From positions 18,261 through 82,260 of the forward strand of contig JBGSQF010000006.1 of assembly GCA_041738235.1 (NCBI GenBank): a stretch of DNA of 64,000 bases, read 5' to 3'. Shown here piece by piece: positions 46,626 through 62,281 of the stretch. Both the position numbers and the translations under genes were made by a program. The stretch comes from Minisyncoccia bacterium. GTDB lineage: Bacteria > Patescibacteriota > Minisyncoccia > Moranbacterales > GCA-2747515. How positions within the stretch are numbered: the first letter of the stretch is position 1; the number at the start of each line of letters is the position of its first letter. Below the pieces are notes generated by a model, which saw only the letters and a program-made list of their open reading frames with translations, searched no databases and had not been told where the DNA came from.

Positions 46626-47696
46626 ATGCACGTTATCATTGAATCACTCAAAAAAGAATACTCTGATCTTGATAAACAACTCACCTCCCCTGAGGTGGTT
46701 TCACAACCTCAGGAACTCAAGCGAATCGGGCAACGGAAGGCCGAACTTGAGGCCATTTTTACAATATCCGACCAACTCGACAAGGTACGGCTACAAATGC
46801 AAGGAAACGCGGAGATCCTCAACACGGAAAATGATGAGGAACTAAAAACCATGGCGCTTGAAGAGAATATTACCCTCGTACAAAACGAAACAAGACTCGA
46901 GCAGGAACTCAAGATCGCACTCCTTCCCAAAAACCCCAACGATGAAAAAGATGTTATTGTGGAGATCCGAGCTGGGGCCGGTGGGGATGAATCAGCACTC
47001 TTTGCCGCCGATCTGTTCCGTATGTATGCACGTTTTGCCGAACGAAAAAATTGGAAATCCAGCATTCTTCATTCACATGGAAATGGGCTCGGCGGTTACA
47101 AAGAGATCATCTTCGAGATCCACGGGGAAAATGTCTATCAAACCATGAAATACGAATCAGGTGTCCACCGCGTACAACGCATTCCTGAGACTGAAAAATC
47201 GGGACGTATCCATACGTCAACAGCTACCGTCGCTATTCTGCCAAAAGCAGAAGAGATCGACATTGCTGTCGACCCCAAGGATGTCCGTATCGATACCTTT
47301 TGTTCTTCGGGTCCTGGTGGACAATCCGTCAATACTACCTACTCTGCCGTTCGACTCACGCACGTTCCCTCAGGACTGGTTGTATCTTGCCAAGACGAGA
47401 AGTCTCAGATCAAAAATAAAGAAAAGGCCTTCACCGTCCTACGATCACGCCTACTCCAACTTGAAGAAGATCGTCGCGCCAAAGAACTTGGTGACGCGCG
47501 CCTGGGACAGATCGGCACGGGAGATCGGAGCGAAAAGATCCGCACCTATAATTTTCCCCAGGATCGCATTACCGACCATCGCATCAAACAGTCTTGGAGT
47601 GGCATTCCCGATAAACTCGATGGGAACATTGATACCCTTCTTGAGGCACTTCGGGAAGAGGATATGAAACTGCAACTCGAAAAGAAAGAAAAATAA
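46626..47696 (+). CDS. prfA: Peptide chain release factor 1
   Basis: GGQ motif ([11 protein letters not shown]) and RF1-type region [23 protein letters not shown] (PxT / RIHTS). Confidence 0.85.
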
Positions 47697-47726
47697 CGTC
47701 TATTGCTTTCCCATTAAGACAAAAAA

Positions 47727-48050
47727 AATCGGCGACACATCCCTGTGTATCGCGCGATTCCCTGCACAACTGCATCCTCACCGCATCCTCCTTGCGATGA
47801 GCCTCACAGCAGCGCACCCACCATTGATCTCCGAAGAAAGAAATGGATATCCATCCATCCCACTTCCCCGTTTGAGTGCATAGGTCCTGGGCCCAATCTT
47901 GACCCGAAGGCCAACCCCATTGATACGGGCTTCCACGATGCGCCCGTGGATACGAATTTCCCTCCTGGGAACAAGCGTGATGCACTCGATGGTGCAAAAA
48001 AATCTGCGTGGTTTACACACAATTTAGCTCCTCTGGTGGTTTCGGAAATT
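47727..48050 (-). other. GC-rich antisense transcription unit between prfA and prmC (possible small basic protein, GTG start 48020 to stop 47778, or structured RNA)
   Basis: Minus-strand promoter TTGACT-16-TATCAT at 48057-48084; an RNA-sense GC hairpin followed by a U-run ends near 47727; GC about 53% against about 40% genome-wide. Confidence 0.3.
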
Positions 48051-48056
48051 TTAAGA

Positions 48057-48084
48057 ATGATACAACATTGGTATTTAAAGTCAA
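48057..48084 (-). promoter_or_regulatory. Sigma-70-like promoter (TTGACT-16 nt-TATCAT) reading antisense into the prfA-prmC spacer
   Basis: -35 at 48079-48084 and -10 at 48057-48062 on the minus strand. Confidence 0.35.
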
Positions 48085-48993
48085 ATGTCCACTATTTACA
48101 CCCTTACTAAAAACCTGCGAGAAGCTTCAACCGTTGAGTCGGCCGACGTTGTATTGATCCTTTCTTTTATTCTCAAAAGACCAAAAGAGTATATCCTCGC
48201 GCACCCGGAACACGAACTCTCAAAAGAAGAACAGAAAAAACTTCAACAGCTCCTGGAAAGACGCGGATCAGGAGAGCCCCTCGCATACATCTTTGGAAAA
48301 AAAGAGTTCTTTGGAAAGGACTTTCGGGTCACGCCCGATACCCTCATCCCACGACCAGAGACAGAACTGCTTGTGGAAGAAACGGTGGAGCACCTTCTAA
48401 AGAACGAGAATAAAAAAACAATTCTTGTCGATGTTGGAACAGGATCAGGATGCATCATCGCATCAGTCGTTAGTCAGCTAAGAAAATTAAATTCTACATT
48501 ACTCCAAGATATTAAATTCTATGGTCTTGATATTTCCAAGCAATCACTCGACATCGCAATAAAAAATGCGAAGTGCCATAACGTTTTAAGTAACATTGTT
48601 TTTCTCCGATCAAATCTTTTGGAATATCTTTTGCATCACCCATCCTTGATCAAAGATCATACATCACTCATTGTTGTTGCAAATCTTCCTTACGTTCCTT
48701 CTGCATACCTCCAACAGAAAAAAACAAAACTCACGAAAGGGCTTTCTTTTGAACCATCGCTCGCACTCGATGGTGGCAAGGATGGTTTCGATCTCTATCG
48801 ATCACTTCTCGATCAAATTCGATCACTTCGAAAGTTACATTCACACATCATCATTCACTGTTTATTTGAAATAGGGAATGATCAAAAATTAACCTCCAAA
48901 AAAAATATTACAAGCGTATTTCCCCACATCAAAATCAGTTCTAAAAAAGATCTCTCAGGACAGATACGCATGATAAAATTTTCCTTAGATTAA
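48085..48993 (+). CDS. prmC: Release-factor glutamine N5-methyltransferase PrmC/HemK-like
   Basis: SAM motif VDVGTGSGCI; motif IV reads NLPY (VVANLPYVPS) rather than the canonical NPPY; lies downstream of prfA. Confidence 0.7.
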   Translation: MSTIYTLTKNLREASTVESADVVLILSFILKRPKEYILAHPEHELSKEEQKKLQQLLERRGSGEPLAYIFGKKEFFGKDFRVTPDTLIPRPETELLVEETVEHLLKNENKKTILVDVGTGSGCIIASVVSQLRKLNSTLLQDIKFYGLDISKQSLDIAIKNAKCHNVLSNIVFLRSNLLEYLLHHPSLIKDHTSLIVVANLPYVPSAYLQQKKTKLTKGLSFEPSLALDGGKDGFDLYRSLLDQIRSLRKLHSHIIIHCLFEIGNDQKLTSKKNITSVFPHIKISSKKDLSGQIRMIKFSLD

Positions 48994-49011
48994 AGTAAAA
49001 ATACAACATAA

Positions 49012-49045
49012 AACAAAAGCTCCGGAGTTCCGGAGCTTTTGTTTT
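49012..49045. terminator. Bidirectional intrinsic terminator (palindromic)
   Basis: aaaa-GCTCCGG-agtt-CCGGAGC-ttttgtttt, between the convergent prmC and the small Lys-rich gene. Confidence 0.6.
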
Positions 49046-49090
49046 ATATCGAAATCAAAAGAGCTTTTTGTATTGTTTTTCAAGACAAAA

Positions 49091-49222
49091 CTATTTCTTT
49101 CGCTTTGCGACTTTTCGTTTTGCTGTCTTCTTCACAGCCTTCTTTGCTGTCTTCTTCACAGCCTTCTTTACGGCCTTCTTAGCTGGCTTTCGCACAGCCT
49201 TTTTCTTTTTTGCAACTGCCAT
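49091..49222 (-). CDS. 43-aa Lys/Ala-rich basic protein (histone-H1/Hc1-like tail; absent from the ORF track)
   Basis: Translation MAVAKKKKAVRKPAKKAVKKAVKKTAKKAVKKTAKRKVAKRKK. Strong RBS AAAGGAGGTGA 8 nt upstream of the ATG, and a terminator immediately downstream. Confidence 0.55.
   Translation of the reverse strand: MAVAKKKKAVRKPAKKAVKKAVKKTAKKAVKKTAKRKVAKRKK
49121..49168. repeat. Perfect 2 x 24-bp tandem repeat (plus degenerate third copy to about 49180) inside the Lys-rich gene
   Basis: tgctgtcttcttcacagccttctt repeated head-to-tail; each copy encodes KKAVKKTA. Confidence 0.6.
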
Positions 49223-49561
49223 AGAGGTCACCTCCTTTCAATTTTATTTTCCTTTTTTTTATTTTCTTGAAACACATCTTTATATACATATATTATACAA
49301 ACAAATATTTTTTTATACAAGTACAAATACAAAAAAATAAATGTGCATAACTTTTTAATACAAAAAAATATTTTCTTGTTGACTTTAATACAAATCCCCA
49401 CCGTTATTATTTCCATTCATACATTTAAACTTTTTCGTCATGGGATAGTAAGTTAATTTTTATCTCACCTCTGCTCCAGCACTACTCTACACAAACACCT
49501 TTTTTATAGTTGCAATTTATTGTTTAAAAAAACAAAAGTTCTATACTCATTTTTATTCAAT

Positions 49562-61372: not shown

Positions 61373-62281
61373 TTAATCGACCATAAGGCGACGCTCCGCC
61401 TCACGATATTTCTCCGCCGTCTTGTCGATGATCTCCTGGGGCAGCTCCGGTCCTGGCGGGGTCTTGTCCCAACCCAGGGTCTCCAGGTAATCACGGACGA
61501 ACTGCTTGTCGAAACTCGGCGGGCTCGTACCAGGTTGATACTGGCTCTCCGGCCAGAAGCGCGACGAGTCCGGAGTGAGCACCTCGTCGATGAGGTAGAG
61601 GCGCCCGTCGGCGTCCAAGCCAAACTCGAACTTGGTGTCAGCGATGATAATGCCGTGAGCCAAGGCGTGAATAGCTCCCCACTGATAAAGCCTCAAGCTC
61701 ACCTCGCGCACCTGCTTGGCCAGGTCACTACCAAGCAGCCAAGCGGTACGGTCGAAGCTGATGTTCTCGTCATGGTCTCCGGTCTGCGCCTTAGTAGACG
61801 GCGTGTAGATCGGCTCACGCAAACGATCAGCCTGAGTCAATCCCTCCGGTAAGGTGATGCCACATACGGCGCCATTCTTCTGGTAGTCCTTCCAGCCGGA
61901 GCCGATCAGGTACCCGCGGACGATCGCCTCCACCGGCAAGGCGTCAAGACGGCGCACTACCACGGCGCGGTCACCCAGGCAAGCACGCTCGTCTGGATCC
62001 GTGACCACATCGTCCACCGAGATACCGCACAAGTCATTCGGGACGATGAAATCAGTCCGCCTCTTCCAAAATCCAGAAAGACGAGCCAACACCTCACCCT
62101 TACCCGGGATGGGCTGTGGCAAAACGACATCGAACGCCGACAGCCGGTCCGTGGCGACCACGAGCATGTGCGCATCGTCCACGTGGTACATATTGCGCAC
62201 CTTACCACGTTGAAAGAGAGGTAAACCCGATCTCGAGAGATCAGCGTCACCAAGAGCCTCTGACATAGGAAGTCTCCTCAT
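61373..62281 (-). CDS. purC: SAICAR synthetase (phosphoribosylaminoimidazole-succinocarboxamide synthase), long form
   Basis: GKVRNMYHVDD...ATDRLSAFD...IIADTKFEFG...DEVLTPDSSRFW; markedly GC-rich (about 60%) against about 40% for the window. Confidence 0.8.
   Translation of the reverse strand: MRRLPMSEALGDADLSRSGLPLFQRGKVRNMYHVDDAHMLVVATDRLSAFDVVLPQPIPGKGEVLARLSGFWKRRTDFIVPNDLCGISVDDVVTDPDERACLGDRAVVVRRLDALPVEAIVRGYLIGSGWKDYQKNGAVCGITLPEGLTQADRLREPIYTPSTKAQTGDHDENISFDRTAWLLGSDLAKQVREVSLRLYQWGAIHALAHGIIIADTKFEFGLDADGRLYLIDEVLTPDSSRFWPESQYQPGTSPPSFDKQFVRDYLETLGWDKTPPGPELPQEIIDKTAEKYREAERRLMVD

Follow-up and report, generated by a model that had tools for sequence, protein, structure and literature searches.

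The prfA-prmC spacer of a Moranbacteria genome very probably holds a minus-strand gene for a small, highly basic protein

RnpA is the normal protein component of RNase P in bacteria. Several reports on CPR bacteria and their kin bear on the locus described here. CPR genomes have been reported to carry diverged RNase P RNAs that score below Rfam thresholds (PMC8172020), group I introns have been reported in tRNA genes of Patescibacteria (PMC13011429), and csrA has been reported to be highly expressed in ultra-small groundwater prokaryotes (PMC9938205). The described systems closest to the unit analyzed here are the CsrA/RsmA-titrating sponge RNAs CsrB and RsmV, the archaeal and eukaryal RNase P protein component 1 (Rpp29/Pop4), the Hfq/Sm-like RNA chaperones, and the lineage-restricted ORFans of CPR/Patescibacteria. 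The unit lies between prfA and prmC in the window, by which we mean the whole stretch of DNA analyzed (64,000 nucleotides).

The spacer and its minus-strand signals

The prfA gene (peptide chain release factor 1; 46626..47696, plus strand; Pfam PCRF and RF-1) and the prmC gene (release-factor glutamine methyltransferase; 48085..48993, plus strand; Pfam PrmC_N and methyltransferase domains) are separated, as the initial annotation had it, by a block of exactly 388 nt that runs from the prfA stop to the prmC ATG (47697-48084). The small minus-strand gene within this block is convergent with prfA, whereas prmC is divergent from its promoter. The closest matches of PrfA among species-representative genomes and JGI metagenomes are Moranbacteria (Parcubacteria/CPR), with 60-68% identity. 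Relatives had been expected to keep the two genes close together; a distance of 0-130 nt is usual in Moranbacteria relatives, and after correction of the alignment ends the prfA-prmC gap was indeed about -20 to 170 nt in 22 of the 23 Moranbacteria-like loci with both genes. Because of this, the 388-nt block is, judged by gap length, an insert relative to kin. A DNA search of 162 prfA loci from genomes and metagenomes returned no match to the spacer except identical copies on two Logan contigs of the same organism. The base composition of the block had been put at about 53% GC against about 40% locally; the contrast is real, but these figures overstate it. GC content amounts to 49% over the whole spacer, 55.7% in its core (47730-48000) and 54% in the 80-aa ORF that it contains, as compared with 42.9% for the window on average, 48% for prfA, and 39% for prmC. 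Downstream of prmC, the window also shows a long terminator-like hairpin (49006-49051), which reaches 20 pairs if G-U is counted, and next to it a 46-aa Lys/Ala-rich minus-strand ORF (49091-49231) whose KKAVKK repeats are reminiscent of histone-like basic proteins.

The minus strand of the spacer carries a sigma-70-like promoter (48057..48084), consisting of a -35 hexamer TTGACT (48084-48079), a 16-nt spacer and a -10 hexamer TATCAT (48062-48057), in agreement with the consensus at 10 of 12 positions. No nucleotide separates the -35 hexamer from the prmC ATG on the opposite strand. Promoter-like sites are not enriched in this region, with three found by a crude consensus match versus 3.5 expected from shuffles, and the call gains weight only because the same position recurs in two relatives considered below, L163 (TTGACT/16/TATTAT) and L169 (TTGACA/16/TACTAT). 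From the inferred transcription start, a 5′ UTR of about 30 nt (48021..48050) leads to a GTG start codon, with the Shine-Dalgarno sequence GAGGAG (48033-48028) located 7 nt upstream. In L163 the upstream sequence has changed, yet GGAGG is kept before the same GTG. The start codon itself lies in a terminator-like hairpin, UUGUGUG-UAAAC-CACGCAG followed by U7 (47997..48022, minus strand), which is kept in L163 at 1997-1981 on the minus strand. This hairpin may mask the start codon or serve as an attenuator; its conservation may be coding-derived, since the U-run also encodes Phe-Phe. At the other end of the unit lies an intrinsic terminator (47721..47753, minus strand), GCGAUACA-CAGGGA-UGUGUCGC followed by CGA and U8, with an 8-bp GC-rich stem at 47753..47732 and the U-run at 47728-47721. 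It is kept in L163, where a single A-to-G change preserves a G-U pair, and L169 has a different hairpin and U-run at the equivalent place. In the plus-strand sense the structure has no U-run and is therefore no terminator for prfA. Both the promoter and the hairpin with its U-run near 47727, which had been proposed from the window's letters to bound a minus-strand transcript, are thus recovered, the first at an identical position in the two relatives.

Conservation of the 80-residue frame

The frame between these signals (47778..48020, minus strand) runs from the GTG to a TGA stop and encodes 80 residues, MCKPRRFFCTIECITLVPRREIRIHGRIVEARINGVGLRVKIGPRTYALKRGSGMDGYPFLSSEINGGCAAVRLIARRMR, among them 14 Arg, 3 Lys, and 5 acidic residues, with a pI of 11.3 and a predicted all-beta structure. 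This ORF is already called in the NCBI annotation of the source contig. The relative that proved decisive, L163 (Logan ERR14790927), was reached only via the neighboring gene, as the second member of the 90%-identity cluster of PrfA. Its prfA-prmC spacer measures 399 nt and is about 79% identical to that of the window. L163 retains the 80-codon frame with the same GTG and TGA, and 65 of the 80 residues are identical (81%). The differences between the two ORFs fall 12/5/31 on the three codon positions, an excess at the third, and correspond to a dN/dS of 0.12 at a dS of 0.90. Over the first 180 nt, 53 of 60 residues are identical in the ORF frame; the same nucleotides read in the two alternative frames give 33/60 and 32/60. 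The sole indel within the ORF is 6 nt long and in frame, whereas the flanks have indels of 1, 3, 2, and 11 nt. Conservation of the product (81%) is intermediate between that of PrfA (90%) and that of PrmC (67%), so that PrmC has diverged more than the small protein. More distant homologues, those of L169 and L174, differ from each other at 2/1/7 sites by codon position.

By these codon-level comparisons, purifying selection acts on the ORF, which is a genuine gene kept by selection; since what is selected is the amino-acid sequence, the protein itself matters. The initial annotation had offered an 80-aa Arg-rich protein, read from the GTG at 48020 with GGAG upstream, as one of two possibilities, and it is this one that stands, the GAGGAG motif and the dN/dS against L163 both speaking for it. 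Two longer frames were rejected: a 137-aa minus-strand ORF has no homologues, and a 121-aa plus-strand ORF has one low-complexity match only (E 1e-4).

In our preferred reading, which we consider very probable, the insert is a monocistronic, protein-coding gene of the minus strand whose product is an 80-residue, highly basic and predicted all-beta protein. Transcription would start from its own sigma-70-type promoter set against the prmC start codon, translation would begin at the GUG behind the GAGGAG Shine-Dalgarno sequence, and the transcript would end at the intrinsic terminator, shortly ahead of the prfA stop codon. What looked like a novel noncoding RNA, a GC-rich, strongly folding unit from promoter to terminator, thus reads as a small protein gene once one diverged relative is aligned. 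The crude consensus scan found no plus-strand promoter-like site in the prfA-prmC interval. Since the terminator is also silent in the plus sense, prfA read-through across the small gene probably still supplies prmC. The read-through RNA would collide or pair with the transcript of the small gene, and this sense-antisense overlap could modulate both genes. The transcript, first described as antisense, would be so only with respect to the prfA-to-prmC read-through RNA; toward prfA it is convergent and does not overlap the coding sequence.

Apparent turnover of small genes in the prfA-prmC slot

A PrfA search yielded relatives at 86-73% PrfA identity, whose contigs we compared at the prfA-prmC slot. 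A homologous minus-strand gene occupies the slot in L169, L170, and L174, whose prfA is 79% identical to that of the window. The L169 homologue encodes 91 aa from a GTG behind a G-rich Shine-Dalgarno sequence, or 78 aa from an internal ATG, its promoter is placed against the prmC ATG with the same geometry, and the gene has a terminator of its own. The window protein and the L169/L174 homologue match by BLASTP with an E value of 2e-6 at 24% identity and have the motifs LVPR, G.VVEA, and M.GYPF in common; the family rests on two independent sequence types, and its alignment is shallow. In other close relatives the small gene is missing: the slot is empty in L165 (prfA 84%; 83 nt), L168 (82%; 36 nt), and both L172 and L173 (76%; 8 nt). 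The gene is therefore not essential at the prfA-prmC locus.

Two further types of slot hold minus-strand ORFs of another kind. In L164 (JGI 3300048585; prfA 86%) the slot (1223-1846) contains an 83-aa minus-strand ORF (1582-1833) and a nested palindrome of about 157 nt, and in L176 and L177 (prfA 73%) it contains a 121-aa minus-strand ORF (1474-1839 and 1478-1882, respectively). Neither was accepted as a homologue of the window gene: 1353 of 2000 shuffles scored at least as high as the real 121-aa sequence of L176, and 39 of 2000 did so for the 83-aa sequence of L164, a marginal result. The palindrome of L164 (1362-1518) has arms of 26 and 20 nt that are 92-100% complementary, which gives it a MITE-like look. 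In L176, TTGACT again lies directly against the prmC ATG. A different arrangement was seen in L171 (ENA ERZ15185467; prfA 77%), in which prfA is followed not by prmC but by an rpsI-rplM-rplQ-rpoA ribosomal cluster on the opposite strand, so that the prfA neighborhood has been rearranged within the clade.

On the contigs compared, the slot is variable in the clade, and the family of the window gene occupies it in at least two sublineages. With three mutually unrecognizable genes in it and several relatives empty, the prfA-prmC junction appears to be a hotspot where small genes of the opposite strand repeatedly land or are turned over. A mobile element, be it a MITE, an IS, or phage cargo, was rejected as the source of the insert: the spacer has no convincing terminal repeats and no second copy within the 64-kb window, direct DNA similarity found no match to it in phages or plasmids, and viral contigs hold no relative of the small protein. 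For the foreign origin suggested at the outset on compositional grounds, the indications are mixed. The gene is patchily distributed among relatives and its GC3 is raised in the window and in L163, but GC3 is not raised in L169, and the searches gave neither a donor nor a hallmark of a mobile element nor a match in phages or plasmids. Elsewhere in the window, a 302-aa purC-like (SAICAR synthetase) ORF (61373-62281, minus strand) lies in the most GC-rich part, whose GC content of about 64% versus 43% overall suggests horizontal acquisition of this islet, which the initial annotation had mentioned; Rfam has no match there.

The arrangement of the unit also raises a reading in which its main role lies at the level of DNA or RNA, with convergent transcription over the prfA-prmC junction modulating prmC and the peptide being secondary. 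The sequence signals fit such a role in that the promoter abuts the prmC ATG, the terminator works in the minus sense only, and the interval from prfA to prmC has no promoter-like site on the plus strand. The unrelated small minus-strand genes in the same slot of L164 and L176, the latter with TTGACT at the same place, also agree with it. However, the promoter scan behind this reading matched sites only crudely to the consensus, and the amino-acid sequence is under purifying selection, which shows that the protein itself matters. We regard a mainly regulatory role as unlikely.

The product, noncoding alternatives, and known systems

If the insert is a protein gene, as we hold very probable, its product belongs to a small, fast-diverging family that is so far found, among the sequences searched, only in the prfA-prmC slot of one Moranbacteria clade. 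The unit thereby defines a tiny, fast-evolving family of predicted basic beta-proteins in Moranbacteria. The 80-aa protein has no match in Pfam, NCBIfam, PHROGs, or PADLOC, and among 5.8 billion proteins searched by a word index, the ORF itself was the only one recovered. Two AF2 runs, one from the single sequence and one from a two-sequence alignment, gave five to six beta strands and no helix at a pLDDT of 45-48. Foldseek ranked Hfq and SH3 barrels as the best matches, none of them significant (best E 0.56). Tentatively, composition and weak similarity suggest a small beta-barrel of the Sm/SH3-like type for the product, which may bind nucleic acid, with RNA as the probable ligand.

A more specific proposal is true homology of the small protein with Rpp29/Pop4: it would be a bacterial member of that family and an RNA-binding barrel of the Sm-like type, with RNase P or some other structured RNA as its target. 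The only PDB match of the family profile is Rpp29 of A. fulgidus (1pc0 and 1ts9; E 0.013-0.075). The match extends over the first three strands and is co-linear along VE.V...G.VV.E...G, and its E values fall in the range obtained when true Rpp29s are compared with each other over that segment. In hhalign comparisons with four solved Rpp29s, P values were 2.5e-4 to 1.3e-3, and none of 200 column shuffles reached the real score; the shuffle also destroys generic beta-strand periodicity, however, so that this control is not specific to Rpp29. The Hfq and SH3 barrels at the top of the Foldseek results, although not significant, point in the same direction. Several results weigh against the homology. 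The HH-suite probability was only 18-43%, and Rpp29 of one species only was matched. The reverse test failed, as an HMM built from the four solved Rpp29s gave the small proteins 2-3 bits and ranked them 72nd to 210th among 14,208 ORF fragments. The Pfam Rpp29 model (PF01868) had no match at E ≤ 1, the hallmark VVDETRNTL motif is not kept, and the gene is absent from the close relatives L165, L168, L172, and L173, which would be unexpected for a subunit of RNase P. We therefore take the similarity to Rpp29 as a lead rather than as membership, on the strength of these profile comparisons, and a genuine homologue seems distinctly unlikely. Still less probable is the fuller scenario of a diverged Rpp29/Pop4 homologue in CPR, an Sm-like barrel acquired or retained in Moranbacteria and possibly tied to the unusually diverged RNase P RNAs of CPR. 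Were the Rpp29/Sm-like similarity confirmed, it would be relevant to RNA processing in CPR bacteria.

The initial annotation had left room for a structured RNA in place of the protein. Such a transcript would be noncoding, whether a housekeeping RNA that has diverged or an RNA of a new class, and the ORF would be incidental. The fold of the minus strand does lend itself to this idea, with -131 kcal/mol (z -3.8) versus -96 kcal/mol (z -2.1) for the plus strand, 18 G-U pairs, and UUCG and GCAA loops. Known families gave no counterpart, however. Rfam returned no family at E ≤ 10 on the 401-nt region, with the models of RNase P, tmRNA, SRP, 6S, and group I intron all silent; nothing reached the gathering score over the whole window, nothing relevant, riboswitches included, appeared at E ≤ 10 on a 1.8-kb region, and ARAGORN found no tmRNA. 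The failure of the first reading to find signatures of RNase P, tmRNA, and SRP RNA was thus confirmed by Rfam/Infernal cmscan (E ≤ 10) and ARAGORN. A diverged RNase P RNA was also rejected, as visual inspection found neither the CR-I nor the CR-IV motif and Rfam gave no sub-threshold match, and so was a tRNA split by a group I intron, for which neither tRNA halves nor an intron model match was found. Comparison of the homologues gave no sign of a conserved structure either. In the window-L163 alignment, paired cells amounted to 92.7% versus 91.8% in shuffles, with 85 of 500 shuffles reaching the observed value. Pairs changed on both sides numbered 3 versus 2.0 expected, and 161 of 500 shuffles reached the observed score, a comparison of two aligned sequences. 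The minimum-energy fold of L163 has a different interior topology, the L169 homologue has a z of only -1.8, and the substitutions follow a 3-nt period, as codons would. With Rfam silent, covariation not above shuffles, and predicted folds that differ between homologues, the structured-RNA alternative is not borne out; on these alignments and folds it is effectively refuted, and we consider it very improbable.

Least credible of all is a sponge that titrates CsrA/RsmA in the manner of CsrB or RsmV through GGA motifs in hairpin loops, and we dropped it because codon periodicity accounts for the GGA motifs and codon-level selection contradicts a noncoding transcript. The motifs that recommend it are conspicuous: GGA occurs in 4 of 8 predicted terminal loops versus 0.89 ± 0.83 in dinucleotide shuffles, none of 150 of which reached 4, and GGAUG occurs five times versus 1.0 expected. 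Moreover, the terminator hairpin ACACAGGGAUGUGU (47735-47748, minus strand) is identical to positions 163-176 of RsmV, a GGA hairpin of the CsrA/RsmA type; this hairpin is part of the 3′ UTR rather than of the ORF and is kept in L163. However, the excess of GGA is explained by Arg (AGG, AGA) and Gly (GGA) codons in the conserved reading frame, and other coding stretches of the window have more GGA per 330 nt, up to 24. The L169 homologue retains the protein motifs but not the hairpins, and csrA was not found in the 64-kb window or in any relative's locus compared.

Set beside the known systems, the small gene resembles the CsrB/RsmV sponges in its transcript of about 330 nt, bounded by a promoter and a terminator of its own, in its several predicted GGA loops, and in the one hairpin identical to an RsmV segment. 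It differs from them in being under codon-level selection, with GGA as codons, in losing the hairpins in the distant homologue, and in having no csrA seen alongside. With the Hfq/Sm-like RNA chaperones the predicted product shares small size, basic character, and richness in beta strands, and Hfq is among the top, nonsignificant Foldseek matches; unlike them, it has neither sequence similarity nor an N-terminal helix, and the confidence of the models is too low for a fold assignment. The likeness to Rpp29/Pop4 (1ts9 and 1pc0) comprises similar size, a predicted all-beta structure, the weak co-linear match VEvV...G.VV.E...G, and a basicity that would suit RNA binding. In contrast to Rpp29, the small protein has neither the conserved DETRNTL core nor the RPE.R C-terminal motif, and it lacks a Pfam match and a significant score in the reverse HMM search; its gene resides in a bacterial host and is dispensable in close relatives. 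Finally, the gene is like the lineage-restricted ORFans of CPR/Patescibacteria in being a short single gene with an ordinary promoter, Shine-Dalgarno sequence, and terminator, without a database family, patchy in close relatives, and rapidly divergent, with 24% identity where PrfA keeps 79%. It stands apart from these ORFans in that its coding status is demonstrated by dN/dS rather than assumed, and in that its slot, which is used recurrently, interrupts a prfA-prmC pair that is otherwise compact.
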